A stretch of DNA of 8,282 nt from a virus (taxonomy: Duplodnaviria > Heunggongvirae > Uroviricota > Caudoviricetes), in IMG/VR virus record IMGVR_UViG_2724678985_000018; one strand, given 5' to 3'. Below, piece after piece: positions 2,708 through 8,282 of the stretch. The position numbers were made by a program, and so were the translations under genes. The notes beneath the pieces are model-generated. The model saw nothing but the letters and a program-made list of their open reading frames with translations. It did not search any database and was not told where the DNA came from. Position 1 is the first letter of the stretch. Each line of letters begins with the position of its first letter.

Positions 2708-2784
2708 TGGCGCGTTGTAGTGGAGTCTAACCACTGACCGATTGCTTAGAAGGCAATTGCTCTGTCCGACTGAGCTAACAACGC
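2708..2784 (-). tRNA. tRNA-Arg (anticodon TCT)
   Basis: Manual cloverleaf from the reverse complement: GCGTTGT-TA-GCTC-AGTCGGACA-GAGC-A-ATTGC-CTTCTAA-GCAAT-CGGTC-AGTGG-TTAGACT-CCACT-ACAACGC-G-CCA. All four stems pair perfectly, CCA is encoded. The T-loop TTAGACT is non-canonical. Confidence 0.75.
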
Positions 2785-2797
2785 ATGATGCTGATAA

Positions 2798-2874
2798 TGG
2801 ACCGCCATCGGGGACTTGAACCCCGCGCAGCCAGCTTCGAAGGCTGGCGCTCTGTCCCGATGAGCTAATAGCGG
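2798..2874 (-). tRNA. tRNA-Arg (anticodon TCG), atypical acceptor end
   Basis: Manual cloverleaf: CCGCTAT-TA-GCTC-ATCGGGACA-GAGC-G-CCAGC-CTTCGAA-GCTGG-CTGCG-CGGGG-TTCAAGT-CCCCG-ATGGCGG-T-CCA. Canonical T-loop and perfect D, anticodon and T stems. Acceptor stem starts C1-G72 with a T at the discriminator position, both unusual. Confidence 0.6.
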
Positions 2875-2883
2875 TATGTAATA

Positions 2884-2959
2884 TGGTGGCCCTTGCTGGA
2901 TTTGAACCAGCGACCTGGCGATTATGAGTCGCTCGCTCTCACCACTGAGCTAAAGGACC
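2884..2959 (-). tRNA. tRNA with CAT anticodon, most likely tRNA-Ile2 (lysidine type) rather than Met
   Basis: Manual cloverleaf: GGTCCTT-TA-GCTC-AGTGGTGA-GAGC-G-AGCGA-CTCATAA-TCGCC-AGGTC-GCTGG-TTCAAAT-CCAGC-AAGGGCC-A-CCA. Closely resembles the E. coli ileX/ileY tRNA as I recall it, differing in acceptor and anticodon stems. One A-C mismatch at the base of the anticodon stem. Confidence 0.75.
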
Positions 2960-2987: not shown

Positions 2988-3701
2988 TCAATAATCAAGC
3001 CCTTGCCTGGATACATATCTGTCTGGCGGGAAGCCATAATAGCGGTGAAATACAGAAATAAAGTAGGACCTGCTTGAATAACCGCATTTTTCTGCTATAG
3101 CCTGTCCATATCCATGCCGGGAACATAACATATTTACAGCAACACGCATCCGCTCTTCCAGCAACAAGCGACTGAACATGCCCCCTTCATTTTTCAGTTT
3201 TGTCTTTAACAAACTCTCACTCATATGCAACTGTAGAGCAATCGCACCAAGCGTCCAGCTTGCTGATATATCTGTCTGAATTATCGCCCTGACTTTGGCA
3301 CTTATGCTGGATAAACATCCACTTAAAAACAATGACATCCGTTCATCTGTTTCAAACAGAGACAGGCAGGCCATCATAAGAAACATATCCGTGACCTCTC
3401 CGGAAAATCCCTGGCTGGTAATTAAAGCCGCAGCCAACGCAGGATTGTTGGGTTCCAGCAACAGGTAAAGCGGAATGTCAGTCAGACGAGTCCTCGTCAG
3501 CTTATGCTGACTTTCCAGATATTGACTTACGACGGATTCGCTTATATCGACAATTTTAACTTTGCCATAATGCATAAGGAAAAGCTCCCTGATGCATTTG
3601 GTGGCCAGAACGACTGAGCCTGGCTTAAGTGACAACGTATCCTTTTCAAGAAAAATATTAATTGGGGAGCAAACCATGATAACTGAACAGACAACAGCCA
3701 T
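2988..3701 (-). CDS. AraC/XylS-family transcriptional regulator (C-terminal double helix-turn-helix, N-terminal domain without a recognisable cupin)
   Basis: 237 aa. C-terminal WTLGAIALQLHMSESLLKTKLKNEGGMFSRLLLEERMRVAVNMLCSRHGYGQAIAEKCGYSSRSYFISVFHRYYGFPPDRY is a textbook AraC helix-turn-helix domain. Locus is visibly AT-rich compared with its flanks. True start may be the second Met (ATG at 3677). Confidence 0.8.
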   Translation of the reverse strand: MAVVCSVIMVCSPINIFLEKDTLSLKPGSVVLATKCIRELFLMHYGKVKIVDISESVVSQYLESQHKLTRTRLTDIPLYLLLEPNNPALAAALITSQGFSGEVTDMFLMMACLSLFETDERMSLFLSGCLSSISAKVRAIIQTDISASWTLGAIALQLHMSESLLKTKLKNEGGMFSRLLLEERMRVAVNMLCSRHGYGQAIAEKCGYSSRSYFISVFHRYYGFPPDRYVSRQGLDY

Positions 3702-3821: not shown

Positions 3822-3849
3822 CAAATAAAAAGCCTTCAGGACTGAAGGC
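3822..3849 (-). terminator. Rho-independent terminator overlapping the 3' end of the 65-aa ORF
   Basis: Minus strand GCCTTCA-GTCC-TGAAGGC (perfect 7-bp stem) followed by TTTTTATTTG. The TGA stop of the upstream ORF lies inside the hairpin. Confidence 0.6.
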
Positions 3850-4033
3850 GTCTGTAACAACCGCACTGATAGTCTGCCAGACCCGCCATAACAAGCTGGG
3901 TCAGTATTAACTGGCAGCGTTCGCGTGAAAGGTAAGTATTCTGCGCAATCTCCCCGACTGTCGCCGGTTCGGTAACGCTTAATTCATTAAACACCACTCT
4001 GGCGGTTTCTGTCATATCCTGCTGTTTTAGCAT
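3836..4033 (-). CDS. Small hypothetical protein (65 aa), possible small DNA-binding protein
   Basis: MLKQQDMTETARVVFNELSVTEPATVGEIAQNTYLSRERCQLILTQLVMAGLADYQCGCYRRLQS. Co-directional with phage genes, followed immediately by a terminator. A weak AGGGAA lies about 9 nt upstream of the ATG. The ELSVTEPATVGEIAQ...LSRERCQLIL stretch suggests a helix-turn-helix or winged helix but I could not place it in a family. Confidence 0.45.
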   Translation of the reverse strand: MLKQQDMTETARVVFNELSVTEPATVGEIAQNTYLSRERCQLILTQLVMAGLADYQCGCYRRLQS

Positions 4034-4155: not shown

Positions 4156-4177
4156 AAAAAAACCCGCAAAAAGCGGG
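4156..4177 (-). terminator. Rho-independent terminator about 80 nt downstream of the Q-like gene (tR'-like position)
   Basis: Minus strand CCCGC-TTTTT-GCGGG followed by TTTTTTT (the + strand shows a 7-A run at 4156-4162). Sits between the Q-like gene and the downstream cargo, where lambdoid phages place the terminator that Q-modified polymerase reads through. Confidence 0.6.
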
Positions 4178-4256
4178 CTCTTTCAAATGTCCATGTCTGC
4201 TATTCGCCTCGCGGTACAGCTTTGCGAAGCGTACCGGAATTGAAGCAGTTTTTACG

Positions 4257-4823: not shown

Positions 4824-5179
4824 TCACTTTCAATTTTGTAAATCTTCACGCCCAGCCGCCCACCAGAAACGAGCTGGCCGCGCACAATATTGATTTCATC
4901 AAACTGCTCGTCGTCTATGAGAAGTCCGGCATGCGTCAGCGCATCCAGTGGTGCTTTCAGGATATTGTCCAGGTCACGACGGCGCTTATCCGGTGGCTCT
5001 GCAATAATCTTTATCGCCAGCCTTCCGGACAGGTTTAATTTCAGCCGCTGCTGGCGAACAATAAGTGCCACATCCCGGCGATAACGCTCACCGGCTTTTG
5101 ATACAAAATATGTGCTGCCACGACGTCGCCAGTAGGTGTTCACCGTCGGCGGGTAAGGCAAAACAAACTCTATACGCAT
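4820..5179 (-). CDS. rusA: Holliday-junction resolvase RusA (crossover junction endodeoxyribonuclease)
   Basis: 119 aa with LPYPPTVNTYW...YRRDVA...PPDKRRRDLDNILKAPLDALTHAGLLIDDEQ...GGRLGVKI, matching the RusA pattern including the catalytic D-rich motifs. AAGAGG ribosome-binding site 7 nt upstream of the ATG. Confidence 0.88.
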   Translation of the reverse strand: MRIEFVLPYPPTVNTYWRRRGSTYFVSKAGERYRRDVALIVRQQRLKLNLSGRLAIKIIAEPPDKRRRDLDNILKAPLDALTHAGLLIDDEQFDEINIVRGQLVSGGRLGVKIYKIESE

Positions 5180-5191
5180 CAGTAACCTCTT

Positions 5192-6295
5192 TTACCCGAG
5201 CACGCCGGTTGCAAAGGCGTGATCAAGAAAACGAAAAATTAAATCAACCTGGGAACCATGCTTTTCTTCGAACGCCAGCGGATCCGCATGAAGCTCGTTG
5301 TGATGCTCCCGACACAGCGGTAGCGTGAAAATATCGTGGGATTTTGTTCCCATTCCGCCCTGACCATGACCAATCAGATGATGAGGATCGTCCGCTGGCT
5401 TACCACAACACGCACACGGCTGTGTCTTTACCCAGCGTGTGTATTTCTCATTTACCCAGCGGCGACGTTTAGGTCGTTTCATGAAGGATTCCGGAGACTC
5501 CGGATCAACGGCAATGCTGACCACCGTCTTTTCCTGTGGTGGGTTCTGTTGCTGGTGGGTGTGAGGCGGTAGCGCAATATTTTTTGTGCGCTGCTTCAGT
5601 ATGCTGGTGGCGGTCTGTTCTCCCGGTATGATGTCGCTTTCACGGTATACGGAGCGGATTTTTTCCGCCGGTAATCCCAGAGAGCGACGCGATACTGCCT
5701 CAGGTAATGCGTCCACCACCTGATTGCAGACTGCCCACCAGGATAATTCAGCCAGCGATAATTCCCGCTCCTGCGTGCCATTCATTACATGGCGTATGAC
5801 GTCAATCATCCAGGCTGTCAGATTTTGTTGAGTAAGTTGCTCAAGTGATTCGGAGGTCTGGTCGCGCAGCTGGTTGTCGCAGTGCCAGCACAACACCATT
5901 GCGCCAGCACCGTAACTGTGAATAACGGTTTCGCTGTGATGATAATCGCCGTGTGGCCACTGGCAGGATTTCACGTGACGTAATAACCAGTCAGACAGTG
6001 CACCAGCGCCGCCAGCTGCACGAATCACCCGCTCATCGCTGAAAAATGGCAGCAGTGATTTATCTTCCGCCAGCGGCTGGCGAACAGCAGGAACCGCTCC
6101 AGATGGCAGCGCCCGCATGTTTTTCGGTTCCGGCTCCACCAGCACCCTGCCGCGATGAAAAACTGGCAATGATTCACGACCGGGCTTAAGGACCACCAGC
6201 CCGAGTTCCGGAACCAGAACAGGTCGAAGTAATACCCGCACATTACCTCCAGACGCGCTGACGGTAGCAGGCATGTGTCCGTGGCAGATGTGCAC
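5192..6295 (-). CDS. DUF968-family phage protein with C-terminal HNH-like motif (YdfU-like)
   Basis: 367 aa from a GTG start. C-terminus CACCGKPADDPHHLIGHGQGGMGTKSHDIFTLPLCREHHNELHADPLAFEEKHGSQ is the Cys/His-rich signature I associate with Qin-prophage YdfU-type proteins. No Shine-Dalgarno before either the GTG (6295) or the first ATG (6274). The 5' end overlaps the preceding 90-aa ORF. Confidence 0.7.
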   Translation of the reverse strand: MHICHGHMPATVSASGGNVRVLLRPVLVPELGLVVLKPGRESLPVFHRGRVLVEPEPKNMRALPSGAVPAVRQPLAEDKSLLPFFSDERVIRAAGGAGALSDWLLRHVKSCQWPHGDYHHSETVIHSYGAGAMVLCWHCDNQLRDQTSESLEQLTQQNLTAWMIDVIRHVMNGTQERELSLAELSWWAVCNQVVDALPEAVSRRSLGLPAEKIRSVYRESDIIPGEQTATSILKQRTKNIALPPHTHQQQNPPQEKTVVSIAVDPESPESFMKRPKRRRWVNEKYTRWVKTQPCACCGKPADDPHHLIGHGQGGMGTKSHDIFTLPLCREHHNELHADPLAFEEKHGSQVDLIFRFLDHAFATGVLG

Positions 6296-6515
6296 GAACA
6301 GGAAGATATACAGAAACGGTCCAGGTCAGACGATCAGCGTTCAGACTCCGCTCCACACGGACACCGCGACGCAGATACGCCTCTTGAAGCATATCTGCCT
6401 CATCGATCGTACAGAACAGATAGTGAAACCAGCCATACTGAGGCGCACGAAAACGCCTCCCCTGCTTAATTTCCGGGTCGGCTTCAGAATTGTGGGATTT
6501 TATGTGTTGTGTCAT
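6243..6515 (-). CDS. Hypothetical protein (90 aa), overlapping the DUF968 gene start in a different frame
   Basis: MTQHIKSHNSEADPEIKQGRRFRAPQYGWFHYLFCTIDEADMLQEAYLRRGV... with a GGAG ribosome-binding site 6 nt upstream of the ATG and a candidate promoter upstream. May be an independent small gene or the frameshifted N-terminus of the downstream ORF. Confidence 0.45.
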   Translation of the reverse strand: MTQHIKSHNSEADPEIKQGRRFRAPQYGWFHYLFCTIDEADMLQEAYLRRGVRVERSLNADRLTWTVSVYLPVRAHLPRTHACYRQRVWR

Positions 6516-6564
6516 CGGATTCTCCGGTGACAGCAGGTGTCAGTTGTTCAGGCTGACTGCGCGA

Positions 6565-6593
6565 ATTGTAAGGCAATACGCCGGAATGTACAA
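6565..6593 (-). promoter_or_regulatory. Candidate sigma70 promoter for the 90-aa ORF / DUF968 operon
   Basis: Minus strand TTGTAC (-35), 17-bp spacer, TACAAT (-10), about 45 nt upstream of the ATG at 6515. Confidence 0.35.
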
Positions 6594-6618
6594 ACAGAAA
6601 ACCCGTCAGTAAGACGGG
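6590..6618 (-). terminator. Rho-independent terminator downstream of the YgiW-like gene
   Basis: Minus strand CCCGTC-TTACT-GACGGG followed by TTTTCTGTTTGT, beginning 19 nt after the TAA stop at 6637-6639. Confidence 0.6.
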
Positions 6619-6636
6619 CTTAACAAGCAGGGGCGG

Positions 6637-6981
6637 TTACTTTAATAATTTCAGTGCCTTTACATCAACTTCAACACTGCTCAGGTCTTTATCAATTTCA
6701 CCCTCAATTCTTACTTTGTCTTTCGGAGAAACATTCTGCCCGGCCCATACGCTGTCATCAATATCCGTGACAATTGTCCCGCTATTGTCACGAAACTCAT
6801 AACGTTCATCACCCACTTTTTTAACGATGCTCCCTTCAAGGATAACCCATGCATCATCCTTCAGTTCTTTTGCCTGCGCTACTGTTGAACGCTCTGCTTC
6901 TGGCCCCTGGAAACCACCCTGCTGTGCAAAAGCGCCAAAAGACACACCGGAAATAAGTGCTGCAATCAATACCTTTTTCAT
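6637..6981 (-). CDS. YgiW/YdeI-family (BOF, DUF388) periplasmic OB-fold protein with signal peptide
   Basis: 114 aa. N-terminal MKKVLIAALISGVSFGAFA looks like a signal peptide. The mature region (QQGGFQGP...DDAWVILEGSIVKKVGDERYEFRDNSGTIVTDIDDSVWAGQNVSPKDKVRIEGEIDKD...VEVDVK) follows the YgiW/YdeI pattern. AAAGAGGA ribosome-binding site upstream. Confidence 0.75.
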   Translation of the reverse strand: MKKVLIAALISGVSFGAFAQQGGFQGPEAERSTVAQAKELKDDAWVILEGSIVKKVGDERYEFRDNSGTIVTDIDDSVWAGQNVSPKDKVRIEGEIDKDLSSVEVDVKALKLLK

Positions 6982-7059
6982 TCATAGTCCTCTTTCAGAG
7001 ATGAACATTCAAACAGCATTTTCAGTATGGTAAAGCGCGGGTGCGTTGAGGATGCCTGA

Positions 7060-7100
7060 CACATCAGAGGTGGCGGGAGATTACTCCCCCGCCTGGTCTC
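7060..7100 (-). other. GC-rich stem-loop at the 3' end of the hok transcript
   Basis: Minus strand GGCGGGGGAG-TAAT-CTCCCGCC starting 8 nt after the hok stop. Not followed by a clean U-tract. Analogous in position to the 3' hairpin of plasmid R1 hok mRNA as I recall it. Confidence 0.4.
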
Positions 7101-7256
7101 TTACTTCTCAGATTCGTAGTCTACGAAGACAGCGACCTCCGTCTGACCGGTTCGGATTCGCACCTCGCAGAGGTCTTTCCTCGTTACCAGTGCCGTCACT
7201 ATGACGGTTAAACAGATGACGATCAGGGCGATTAACATCGCCTTTTGCTGCTTCAT
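7101..7256 (-). CDS. hok: Hok/Gef-family type I toxin (membrane peptide, 51 aa)
   Basis: MKQQKAMLIALIVICLTVIVTALVTRKDLCEVRIRTGQTEVAVFVDYESEK is near-identical to E. coli HokD/RelF-type sequences as I recall them. GGAG ribosome-binding site upstream. The six-frame track extends this frame to an upstream ATG at 7313 (70 aa), but the conserved Hok start is the internal Met. Confidence 0.9.
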   Translation of the reverse strand: MKQQKAMLIALIVICLTVIVTALVTRKDLCEVRIRTGQTEVAVFVDYESEK

Positions 7257-7440
7257 AGCCTGCTTCTCCTTGCCTTTCGGCACGTAAGAGGCTAACCTAC
7301 ATGTGTTCAGCATGGATTGAGCCTCAGATTAATGTTAAGCGTCTTGCAGGACGCGTAATGTTAACTGGGGCTTTTCTCTATCTGCCGTTGGTGTTCATGC
7401 CCGAGGCAGATAGCCTCAAGCACCCGCTGCAATTCTACTT
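7257..7440 (-). promoter_or_regulatory. hok mRNA leader (expected to contain the mok start region and the Sok antisense-RNA target; sok would be encoded on the + strand here)
   Basis: Minus strand contains GCTTGAGGCTATCTGCCTC and TAGCCTCTTACGTGCCGAAAGGCAAGGAGAAGCAGGCTATG, which resemble the 5' end and the region just upstream of the start codon of plasmid R1 hok mRNA as I recall them. Candidate -10 TAGAAT just upstream of the presumed 5' end. Exact sok coordinates not determined. Confidence 0.45.
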
Positions 7441-7546
7441 AACTATCCTTTTCCCGCAAACCGTTTTTATCCCCAGCGGCAAATCGAATACTCCACCAGC
7501 GCCACCGCCATCGCAATTCCTACCGTTGTGAATGCTTCAGGCCAGG

Positions 7547-8188
7547 TCATTGATTCACCTCCTGCGGCGGTTCTGGTAGCGACATCCAGTGGGTTGCTTG
7601 CCTAAGATCATTACCCGGACTAACTGCTATACCTCCGCGCCGGAACGTGCCTCCGAGATAGCGTGCGGAATATATTAATGGCCCAGCCTCGCTATCGATA
7701 TTCATCGAAATAAGCACGTTCTGGCTCTTTTCAGGCATTCGCTCAGTACAGCTTATCCAGCCATCCAGAGTTATCGGAGATCTGGTTGACGTTTCCGAGA
7801 TTTCCCGAAAATTGTTGGTTGACGAATTCTTATTTTCCCGAAAGTTTCCGGCCTGAAGCATGGCGACGCGGCAGGCGTTCCAGCCATCAGCATATGTTTT
7901 AGTTACACCGTCGAGATGGCAGGTAAGCAAATCCATTTCATCAGGCACTACCATTGCTATCGGCTCTGCTTCCAGTGATGCCAGCGCGATACGAAACACA
8001 TTAGCCAGCAGGCTGTCTGAAGACTTGTTATCGTGCGCCGAGTCGCTCAGGAAGCCTGTGATGTATGATTTAATCTCCGCGCGTTCTCTGGTAATAGTGC
8101 TCATATCAGTTTGAACCGCCCAGGGTGTCCTGGAGAGTGTTTTATCTGTGAAATCAGGCTGCCAGATCATCGTTTCCGATGGAAGCAT
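7547..8188 (-). CDS. Phage protein with C-terminal DUF551-like domain
   Basis: 213 aa. C-terminus WISCTERMPEKSQNVLISMNIDSEAGPLIYSARYLGGTFRRGGIAVSPGNDLRQATHWMSLPEPP fits the DUF551 pattern (W...LP...HWM.LPEPP) as I recall it. Contains an internal repeat NFRENKNSSTNNFREISE. No clear Shine-Dalgarno before the first ATG; the start could be Met-7. Confidence 0.5.
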   Translation of the reverse strand: MLPSETMIWQPDFTDKTLSRTPWAVQTDMSTITRERAEIKSYITGFLSDSAHDNKSSDSLLANVFRIALASLEAEPIAMVVPDEMDLLTCHLDGVTKTYADGWNACRVAMLQAGNFRENKNSSTNNFREISETSTRSPITLDGWISCTERMPEKSQNVLISMNIDSEAGPLIYSARYLGGTFRRGGIAVSPGNDLRQATHWMSLPEPPQEVNQ

Positions 8189-8282
8189 AATAAGCTTTTT
8201 CTGCTTATGCCGGAGGAGTATGGCCCAGCCTTCACAGCAATCGTTGATTGTTATACCAATCCACCCACGTTAGTATGGCCAG

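Follow-up and report, generated by a model that had tools for sequence, protein, structure and literature searches.

A YgiW-family gene at the terminator of a prophage hok/sok locus: context, relatives and probable route of expression

The hok/sok-BOF cassette

The window (the whole stretch of viral DNA analysed here, 8,282 nt in length) carries on its minus strand a block made up of sok/hok, an open reading frame (ORF) of the BOF family and a terminator. The block, at 7565..6590, is homologous to the right end of phage 933W (97.1% identity over 976 nt), and the homology ends at both edges of the cassette. The BOF ORF, of 114 aa, lies at 6981..6637, with the signal peptide codons at 6981-6925, the mature part at 6924-6640 and the stop codon at 6639-6637. 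On the same strand, hok is found upstream of it and a 90-aa ORF, DUF968, RusA and a Q-type antiterminator downstream, which bears out the position between hok and the nin and recombination genes given in an earlier note on this DNA; in the O111:H- strain 11128, the equivalent block comes after cro/replication-type genes and thus in a nin-type region. The interval that the earlier note had assigned to the unit, 6565-6981, is right except for its start at 6565, which is about 25 nt beyond the end of the terminator T-tract. The linkage with hok/sok was seen at every locus examined: the sok/hok-BOF block was present in 47/47 IMG/VR loci, in two downstream contexts and several upstream ones. At a permissive threshold, the Rfam search of the window returned nothing beyond sok, three tRNAs and noise below the threshold, and none of these overlaps 6565-6981.

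A putative hok promoter, read from the sequence and under the threshold of our consensus scan, lies at 7460..7432 (minus strand), with the -35 element TTTGCG at 7460-7455, a 17-nt spacer and the -10 element TAGAAT at 7437-7432; it would start transcription near G7425, in keeping with the Rfam hok/sok model, whose position 1 falls at 7425. The hok mRNA leader with the sok target region follows at 7425..7251 (minus; RF01794, 113.5 bits, gathering 59, E 6e-26), and the sok antisense gene is placed on the plus strand at ~7305-7375 by homology to the sokW annotation in 933W. The mok ORF (7313..7101, minus) contains hok (7256..7101, 51 aa), with matches to Pfam HOK_GEF (E 1e-22) and the MokW-like PHROG 251, and RefSeq annotates a Hok/Gef family protein at the position of hok. 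The 3' region of the hok mRNA, at 7100..7029 (minus), has a hairpin, GGCGGGGGAGTAATCTCCCGCC, at 7092-7071 and a fold-back element, CCTCAACGCACCC, at 7051-7039, the latter complementary, as read from the sequence, to the 5' end of the mRNA, GGGTGCTTGAGG. [quoted passage not shown] The 933W/Sp5 allele of hok/sok is functional, and uninduced Sp5 lysogens contain hokW mRNA, which has been described as a discrete "full-length" species on a 6% gel, its size not being stated in the text (PMC8621323).

Identity, export and relatives of the BOF protein

The family matches of the ORF at 6981..6637 are far above chance: Pfam BOF (PF04076) at E 1.9e-33 and 115.1 bits (cut-off 25.8), covering positions 10-102 of the 103 in the profile; NCBIfam NF033674 at 136.8 bits (cut-off 35); TIGR00156 at 112.3 bits (cut-off 108.15); and PHROG 1230 over the full length of the ORF (1-114/114). 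The E. coli YgiW structure 1NNX matches the ORF at E 3.5e-29 and is also the best PDB match of its AlphaFold model (TM 0.91, 53% identity), with other OB folds ranking behind it; the model has five strands in an OB-fold beta-barrel, with a core pLDDT of 94-98. By these matches, the ORF is identified as a genuine, conserved BOF (YgiW/YdeI) gene, as the earlier note had proposed, and the homology to a structural or lysis protein that would have spoken against the proposal was not what we found, the best homology being to BOF/YgiW. In sequence alignment, the protein is 49% identical to K-12 YgiW and 34% to K-12 YdeI, and in a neighbour-joining tree, the prophage alleles form a clade of their own on the YgiW side. 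The YdeI equivalog model NF007471 gave 64.8 bits, under its cut-off of 179, and the protein is thus not a YdeI/OmdA equivalog. The ORF is under purifying selection, with a dN/dS of 0.04 against the 933W allele and of 0.21 against an 83% identical allele, and is intact in the three alleles compared.

The N-terminus reads MKK, VLIAALISGVSFG and AFA, followed by QQGGF, and has the n, h and c regions and the AXA cleavage motif of a signal peptide; the mean Kyte-Doolittle hydropathy of the VLIAALISGVSFG segment is 2.23. The earlier note had called the protein secreted, and this motif and hydrophobic core uphold the claim. Aligned with crystallised YgiW, the predicted cleavage site coincides with the N-terminus of its mature form and leaves a protein of 95 aa, with a pI of 4.6 and a mass of ~10.5 kDa; the predicted product is a Sec-exported, acidic, periplasmic OB-fold protein. 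Published secretome work assigned a SignalP "SPI" to the 933W allele (Z1498 = UniRef A0A4P8BAV1, 99% identical; Z1498 was equated with the prophage BOF gene via the common UniRef identifier) and detected it by mass spectrometry in EDL933 supernatants. The same supernatants also contained 933W structural/virion proteins and Stx2, and the BOF signal may therefore reflect a spontaneously induced subpopulation and not the repressed lysogen. This detection is the one sign of expression that we found for the gene, which the earlier note had put forward as a candidate for lysogenic conversion.

The prophage gene is already known. An identical protein is in RefSeq as WP_000756596.1, named a NirD/YgiW/YdeI family stress tolerance protein, and the 933W record of 1999 describes L0136 as "similar to hypothetical YgiW and YdeI proteins." L0136 (= EDL933 Z1498, Sakai Sp5 ECs_1244, VT2-Sakai H0152) is the same gene, with a 99-100% identical protein, the same hok/sok ahead and the same terminator behind; in 933W-like Stx phages, however, the cassette adjoins attR, past the tail genes, whereas the window has it in the nin region of another lambdoid prophage. 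Our search of the literature on ygiW in prophages and Shiga-toxin phages and on 933W L0136 found no functional study of a prophage BOF, and the search by locus tag (ECs1244 and others) found the secretome paper only.

The chromosomal relatives are better characterised. YgiW and its Salmonella counterpart VisP are periplasmic stress and virulence proteins (PMC5053249) and share the BOF fold, the signal peptide and the QGGF motif with the window protein. YgiW has 130 aa, however, and the window protein, shorter by 16 residues and without the duplicated QGGF linker, may differ from it in partner specificity; K-12 ygiW is also divergent from qseBC, whereas the neighbours of the window gene are hok and prophage genes, with no qseBC synteny. 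YdeI/OmdA of E. coli and Salmonella, a periplasmic protein of the same Pfam family and TIGR00156 subfamily, is linked to polymyxin resistance through porins (PMC6370654) but is set apart by the lower identity and the equivalog score given above. The best mechanistic model is SipA (VCA0732) of Vibrio cholerae, likened here by description: a periplasmic BOF protein that binds antimicrobial peptides and interacts with OmpA, and whose peroxide and cadmium tolerance E. coli ygiW cross-complements (PMC6370654). It differs in that its gene is on the chromosome and is under the control of a two-component system that induces it.

Other prophages, in four genera, have also acquired related BOF genes independently. 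At the tail-fibre ends of lambdoid prophages of E. coli (P0047), Cronobacter (P0020), Salmonella (P0029) and Citrobacter (P0022), we found genes for proteins of 127-130 aa, 53-57% identical to the window protein and placed on the branch sister to its clade; they stand behind tail-fibre genes and adjoin host DNA, with no linkage to hok. The idea that this sister clade is exclusively prophage-borne was ruled out, as it includes the chromosomal P0016 (Pantoea) and P0015 as well as P0010, which adjoins IS fragments.

The BOF insertion and the signals around it

The origin of the arrangement can be read from loci that lack the BOF gene. In the hokD loci of K-12, ST95-32 and E2348/69, a terminator, AACCCGCTTCGGCGGGTT with a run of T, stands immediately behind the fold-back element, and ST95-32 and E2348/69 have the arrangement DUF968, small ORF and hokD with BOF absent. 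Between these BOF-less sites and the window, homology is lost at 7029 and restarts at 6605; by pairwise alignment with the sites of ST95-32 and E2348/69, 423 nt (7028..6606, minus) stand in place of the 8 nt, CGCTTCGG, that sit at the tip of the hairpin in the hokD terminator. The unit comprises a 34-nt leader, the ribosome-binding site, the ORF and the 5' arm of a new terminator, while the 3' arm and the T-tract, from 6605 downward, come from the terminator of hok. Some 4,700 E. coli genomes have hokD-type loci that match the stretch at 7100-7029 with 92-96% identity, and in every case the homology ends at 7029. The composition of 7028-6590 is deviant, with 43.7% GC (GC3 37.4%) vs 50-54% (GC3 50-54%) in the flanking genes. 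Given the empty site in related prophages and this base composition, the BOF unit is horizontally acquired cargo, inserted at the apex of a hokD-type terminator; the suggestion of cargo in the earlier note fits well with both. K-12 Qin was dropped as a further empty site, as the 90-aa ORF downstream has no similarity to K-12 Rem.

The ribosome-binding site and the terminator directly behind the gene, both described in the earlier note, are also found. The former, a strong site with AAGAGGA at 6994-6988 (minus), was read from the sequence 6 nt ahead of the BOF ATG and is conserved throughout the aligned alleles, the 83% one among them. The latter, AAGCCCGTC-TTACT-GACGGGTTT with a T-rich tail, was found by terminator scan and folding at 6621..6599 (minus; T-tract to ~6590), beginning 15 nt beyond the stop codon; it is the sole terminator-like site that the scan gave on the minus strand at 6100-7700. 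Folded from the stop codon to the end of the T-tract (51 nt), the region gives -14.3 kcal/mol; its core stem and loop, CCCGTC-TTACT-GACGGG, are the same in 15/15 distinct alleles, the 16 nt between stop codon and stem being variable.

The unit's own promoter is another matter. A scan that required at least 9/12 matches and A at -11 found no consensus promoter upstream of the BOF ORF, and scans of three sister prophage BOF loci gave nothing exceeding the shuffled expectation. By eye, an element can be made out at the junction, with TTTACC at 7034-7029, a 16-nt spacer and an extended -10-like TGtTTGAAT at 7015-7007, and with T instead of A at the key second position (-11) of the -10. With no consensus promoter, a hybrid terminator that owes its 3' half to hok and a constant linkage to hok/sok, the BOF gene is probably not the self-contained unit that the earlier note had made of it.

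The regulatory box of most relatives is likewise missing. The QseB/PmrA-type box, a direct repeat of CTTAA-N6-CTTAA (PMC5053249), is found upstream of 27/32 other BOF genes checked, K-12 ygiW among them, and the tail-fibre-end prophage genes have kept it as TTAAG-N6-TTAAG, 62-64 nt ahead of the start codon. It is absent in all three hok-linked BOF alleles and, with one mismatch tolerated, across the whole window. A PhoP box was also considered and dropped, the matches having two mismatches and inconsistent positions.

Expression, function and the association with haemolytic uraemic syndrome

The explanation that we favour, at a probability of about 0.55, is that of an exported BOF cargo seated in the hok terminator, expressed by read-through from the hok promoter and having a YgiW-like periplasmic role. 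The hok/sok genes make up one cassette of ~1 kb with the BOF ORF and its rebuilt terminator, located in the nin region or, in 933W-like Stx phages, next to attR. With no terminator between hok and BOF, no credible BOF promoter and no QseB/PmrA box, read-through from the weak constitutive hok promoter is the most likely source of BOF transcripts, and co-transcription with hok the likeliest route of expression; translation would start from the gene's own ribosome-binding site, and during induction, antiterminated early phage transcription would also cover the gene. The periplasm of the lysogen would thus contain the protein regardless of stress signalling, and there, by homology, it would act like YgiW/VisP, YdeI/OmdA and SipA. 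The homologues bind cationic antimicrobial peptides or envelope components, interact with porins and raise the tolerance to antimicrobial peptides, peroxide and cadmium (PMC5053249, PMC6370654), and by analogy, we suggest a role for the prophage protein in envelope stress and antimicrobial-peptide tolerance. Our search for transcript data on the prophage BOF gene found none, and the discrete full-length hokW mRNA could mean that most transcripts end before BOF by a mechanism invisible to the scans.

The same function could also be served independently of hok, if the 34-nt leader from the junction to the ribosome-binding site holds a weak constitutive promoter, partly created by the junction. 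Lambda-type morons typically come with a promoter and a terminator of their own, and the BOF unit resembles bor and lom in being a small, envelope-directed insert of deviant composition, placed between genes that adjoin each other in related phages and with a terminator behind; it also has its own ribosome-binding site, and the hybrid element at the junction can be read as such a promoter. We still hold this possibility to be rather unlikely: the element was missed by the consensus scan (9/12 matches, A at -11), its -10 has the wrong base at the key position, it is not retained in the 83% allele, the stretch being the least conserved part of the cassette, and the 3' half of the terminator belongs to hok. 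The unit also differs from bor and lom in lacking a demonstrable promoter and in being placed inside an accessory hok/sok unit rather than between core genes.

Another distinction concerns who benefits. The protein could serve the phage instead of the stress tolerance of the host, either through superinfection exclusion, by binding porins or other outer-membrane proteins from the periplasmic side and so keeping competing phages from adsorbing or delivering their DNA, or by modulating, together with Hok, envelope damage and the timing of lysis during induction. The homologues do interact with OmpF, OmpD and OmpA (PMC6370654), HokW aids phage release upon induction (PMC8621323), the linkage to hok/sok is strict at all loci examined, and the other prophage BOF genes adjoin tail-fibre and lom genes at prophage ends, frequent sites of exclusion and surface-modifying genes. 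We nevertheless regard a phage-serving role as quite improbable: a single insertion event accounts for the link to hok, the alleles being 97-100% identical, and the tail-end BOFs have no such link; an exclusion phenotype is known for no BOF protein, and none of the PADLOC models matches BOF, Hok, the 90-aa ORF or DUF551. At the other extreme, the gene could contribute nothing measurable and have hitch-hiked as a neutral passenger with the selected hok/sok and the successful Stx phages. The near-identity of most copies indicates a recent spread, the literature search revealed no published phenotype for any prophage BOF, and linkage to Stx2a phages can explain the clinical association discussed below. 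A gene without function would hardly be expected to show the purifying selection seen here, however, nor to keep its ribosome-binding site and an invariant terminator stem; with the independent captures in four genera and the detection of the protein by mass spectrometry, we consider neutrality very unlikely.

If read-through from hok is the correct explanation, a stress protein that is normally induced by QseBC/PmrAB would have become constitutive in STEC lysogens, driven by a toxin-antitoxin promoter; seated in the hok terminator and deprived of its QseB/PmrA box, a phage cargo would have been rewired from stress-induced to toxin-antitoxin-driven expression. At long odds, the insertion may also have created a bicistronic toxin-BOF mRNA, with constitutive BOF expression, an altered activation of hok or both as the outcome. 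As the activation of hok mRNA needs a 3'-end processing that removes the fold-back element, a 3' extension of ~430 nt would alter it, and the activation of the toxin and the production of BOF would be functionally coupled.

The prophage BOF gene is found in ~10% of complete E. coli genomes, the matches listed being of the major STEC serogroups, and resides on the Stx2a and Stx1 phages themselves; a strain may have up to four copies. A case-control genome-wide association study (GWAS) of 2025 found "ygiW_2" and a mokC-like gene to be associated with haemolytic uraemic syndrome (HUS), with no mention of their being neighbours in a prophage (PMC11950266). The annotations suggest that these gene groups are the BOF gene of the window type and its mok. 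If both belong to one 1-kb cassette of Stx phages, linkage is the simplest reading of the HUS signal; if, on the other hand, constitutive BOF does raise the tolerance to host antimicrobial peptides or oxidants, the association would reflect more than the linkage to Stx2a phages.

A BOF-family protein with a predicted signal peptide

The product of the 114-aa ORF at 6981..6637 (-) is unambiguously a member of the bacterial OB-fold (BOF) family. It is recognised by Pfam PF04076 (115 bits, cut-off 25.8), NCBIfam NF033674 (136.8, cut-off 35) and TIGR00156 (112.3, cut-off 108.15), and PHROG 1230 aligns to it over the full length. The sole solved relative found by sequence, E. coli YgiW (1NNX; E 3.5e-29), is also the top PDB match (TM 0.91, 53% identity) of an AlphaFold model that took 42 homologues as input and forms a barrel of five strands (pLDDT 94-98). 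Identity is 49% to YgiW and 34% to YdeI of K-12; the protein is 16 residues shorter than both because the duplicated QGGF linker is missing, and fails the YdeI equivalog model (64.8 bits vs 179). Its N-terminus, MKK / VLIAALISGVSFG / AFA followed by QQGGF, is predicted to be a textbook Sec signal peptide, and the predicted cleavage site aligns with the first residues of crystallised mature YgiW. On the (-) strand, the ATG has a strong ribosome-binding site 6 nt 5' of it (AAGAGGA), and an intrinsic terminator (6621..6599) follows 15 nt 3' of the stop codon. The earlier note had described a secreted YgiW/YdeI-family protein with its own ribosome-binding site and a terminator directly behind it, and these matches and signals bear it out.

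The gene is real, rightly identified and present in public annotation already. RefSeq labels the identical protein, WP_000756596.1, a "NirD/YgiW/YdeI family stress tolerance protein"; the phage 933W record AF125520 describes L0136, which is 99% identical, as [quoted passage not shown]; and in Sakai the copy in Sp5 is ECs_1244. Of 5,426 complete E. coli genomes, 550 have the gene, some in as many as four copies, and the carriers among the matches listed are STEC serotypes; every one of the 45 close matches in the phage collection was a Stx-converting or 933W-like phage. Across the complete E. coli genomes the copies number 662, of which five are on plasmid-labelled records. One 63,329-bp "plasmid" of O157:H7 PNUSAE146744 (NZ_CP133131.1; BOF copy at 44173-44568) is as large as a Stx phage genome, and may represent phage DNA in circular form that was assembled on its own.

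Insertion into the hok terminator

Transcribed towards the BOF gene is hok (7256..7101 (-)), contained in mok (7313..7101 (-)). Window 7029-7425 has 92-96% identity to the hokD-type loci of ~4,700 E. coli genomes, and among the matches listed this homology never extends past 7029. In K-12, ST95-32 and E2348/69, the intrinsic terminator AACCCGCTTCGGCGGGTT and a T-run come straight after the hok fold-back element; ST95-32 and E2348/69 also have the window's downstream neighbours, a small ORF and then DUF968, and BOF is absent. Pairwise alignment places window 7028-6606 (423 nt) in place of 8 nt at the apex of the hok terminator hairpin, with homology picking up at 6605 (CGGGTTTT...) and running on into the next gene. 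The insert consists of a 34-nt leader, the ribosome-binding site, the BOF ORF and a new 5' arm (CCCGTC), which pairs with the retained 3' arm and so rebuilds the terminator. All 15 distinct alleles share the same core stem and loop, and the 16 nt 5' of the stem vary. Insert and retained arm together (7028-6590) have 43.7% GC and a GC3 of 37%, against 50-54% in the neighbours. The features of the insert and its deviant GC are marks of acquired cargo, and they place the BOF ORF within the hok transcription unit. The 90-aa ORF downstream (6243-6515) is the positional homologue of the small ORF at 27-305 in the ST95-32 and E2348/69 loci (PHROG 1212, function unknown; 35% identity, E 8e-18); the flanking DUF968 and hok are far better conserved in these strains than this ORF.

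The window shares 976 nt with 933W at 97% identity (6590-7565), from just 5' of the hok promoter to the final terminator T, and the homology ends abruptly at both edges. In all 47 IMG/VR loci with the gene, where the contig is long enough, hok/sok stands at a constant distance 5' of BOF; downstream there are two contexts, the 90-aa ORF/DUF968 or 933W L0135, while upstream contexts vary and the two sides are found in mixed pairings. The mobile unit is therefore hok/sok, BOF and the terminator, rather than BOF by itself.

In a neighbour-joining tree, the hok-linked alleles form a separate clade, whose sister is a group of 127-130-aa proteins apart from the K-12 YgiW clade. We inspected the genomic context of seven sister-group members: four are at the tail-fibre end of lambdoid prophages, adjoining host DNA, in E. 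coli, Cronobacter, Salmonella and Citrobacter, two are chromosomal and one lies beside IS fragments. The four prophage contexts make BOF genes a recurrent prophage cargo in Enterobacteriaceae. The tail-end genes (loci L076, L078, L080, L084 and L086; gene at ~5001-5393) encode proteins of 127-130 aa with 53-57% identity and are the final prophage gene, after J, lom and the tail-fibre genes.

Transcription and translation signals

QseB binds a CTTAA-N6-CTTAA site that fits the PmrA consensus (PMC5053249). Its reverse complement, the direct repeat TTAAG-N6-TTAAG, precedes 27 of the 32 other BOF genes that we checked: K-12 ygiW, a chromosomal gene of Pantoea, 20 of 23 loci from other species and all five tail-end prophage loci examined (one protein at two loci), where it stands 62-64 nt before each start codon. 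The background rate is 0.6% of shuffled sequences. All three hok-linked alleles are without the repeat, and the window has no match anywhere, even at one mismatch. The box suggests that the tail-end genes are prophage cargo wired to a host two-component system, and the hok-linked BOF is one particular rewired instance of BOF genes carried by prophages.

A promoter scan 5' of the BOF ORF found none, and the same scan gave a single terminator on the (-) strand. An element is readable at the insertion junction (TTTACC, 16-nt spacer, TGtTTGAAT) and could provide a weak promoter of the gene's own; its -10 is missing the crucial second-position A, and a diverged allele, the "83% allele", does not keep it; no part of the cassette has diverged further there than this stretch. 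We consider such a promoter less likely than transcription from hok. The putative hok promoter (TTTGCG-17-TAGAAT (-), read from the sequence) would start transcription at G7425, position 1 of the Rfam model, and mRNA of hokW, the hok of 933W and Sp5, has been found in uninduced Sp5 lysogens (PMC8621323). The most economical reading, we infer, is that the BOF gene lost its stress-responsive promoter and would now be transcribed via read-through from the hok promoter. When the hok-BOF spacer, 6982-7072 (-), is folded to minimum free energy, the AGAGG of the BOF ribosome-binding site pairs with CCUCU at 7070-7066, just past the hok terminal hairpin; BOF translation might depend on how the hok mRNA folds at its 3' end.

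Independent evidence of the protein being made comes from a 2026 secretome study, in which Z1498 was detected in EDL933 culture supernatants and reported to have a SignalP type-I signal peptide (PMC12962677); the UniProt entry of Z1498, A0A4P8BAV1, represents the exact 933W allele in UniRef. Spontaneous induction may explain the detection, since the same supernatants also held 933W virion proteins and Stx2 (PMC12962677).

Candidate function, disease association and prophage neighbours

YgiW protects E. coli from peroxide, cadmium and acid, and Salmonella VisP, an inhibitor of LpxO that binds peptidoglycan sugars, confers cationic-peptide resistance (PMC5053249). YdeI-OmpD and YgiW-OmpF interactions have been reported, and V. 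cholerae SipA, which E. coli ygiW cross-complements, binds antimicrobial peptides directly and interacts with OmpA (PMC6370654). All these characterised relatives are periplasmic, and a like role is therefore expected for the prophage protein: by analogy, a small periplasmic binder of cationic peptides or envelope components that would work with an outer-membrane protein. We found no published experiments on the prophage copies, and lysogenic conversion is a reasonable hypothesis. That the gene instead serves the phage, by exclusion or lysis modulation, appears improbable to us; that it is a neutral passenger seems more improbable still. From the 933W allele it differs by seven synonymous changes and one non-synonymous change (dN/dS 0.04), and from the 83% allele by dS 0.37 and dN 0.079 (dN/dS 0.21); the ORF is intact in all three alleles compared, and the ribosome-binding site is retained in those aligned.

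An Irish STEC case-control GWAS jointly tied "ygiW_2" and the mokC-like "group_5720" to haemolytic uraemic syndrome (HUS; adjusted odds ratio ~5.4-5.5), treated them as separate, possibly interacting genes, and also listed "ydfU_1" and "ybcQ_1" (PMC11950266). By their annotations, the first two would be the cassette's two ORFs; DUF968/YdfU and Q-type genes are cassette neighbours in nin regions. As the cassette is present on 933W-like Stx2a phages, the association is most simply explained by linkage to the toxin phage, and a contribution of the BOF gene itself is possible. What is new here is the anatomy: a BOF unit inserted in the terminator of hok, a hok-linked gene that has lost the QseB/PmrA box, and a cassette at two prophage positions.

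The window matches a lambdoid prophage of E. coli O111:H- strain 11128 over 8,112 nt at 100% identity, as it does many other O111 strains, and the hok-BOF region is identical also in O157:H7, O26, O103, O121 and O145 genomes. The (-) strand order is DUF551, sok/hok, BOF, the 90-aa ORF, DUF968 (YdfU-like), RusA, a DUF1133/Q-type antiterminator, a 65-aa ORF (3836-4033), an AraC-family regulator and three tRNAs. The nin region, where the gene had been placed, is a fair label because cro-like and replication genes precede this block in strain 11128. A weak match to isrK, an Hfq-binding sRNA family, directly 3' of the Q gene (4157-4230 (-); 19.8 bits, gathering score 50) is probably noise. The 237-aa regulator (2988-3701 (-)), just downstream of the Q gene, is nearest to YdeO (108 bits, cut-off 348) and GadX (87 bits), both regulators of acid resistance, with scores so low that it is an orthologue of neither; in O157:H7, YdeO/GadX-like regulators encoded by prophages (Psr, PatE) have been described. 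ARAGORN reads the tRNAs (2708-2959 (-)) as Arg(tct), Arg(tcg) and Met(cat); the third is tRNA-Ile in RefSeq, the usual reading of a CAT anticodon once modified to read AUA. Past the tRNAs, the region is broken by an IS66-family, ISEc47-like element (1-2520; tnpA 86-511, tnpB 508-858, tnpC 889-2502), inserted, by comparison with O157 strain PV15-279, between the prophage tRNA genes and a TerB-family gene, and the last 171 nt of the window (8112-8282) are the terminus of an IS1203/IS629-type element.
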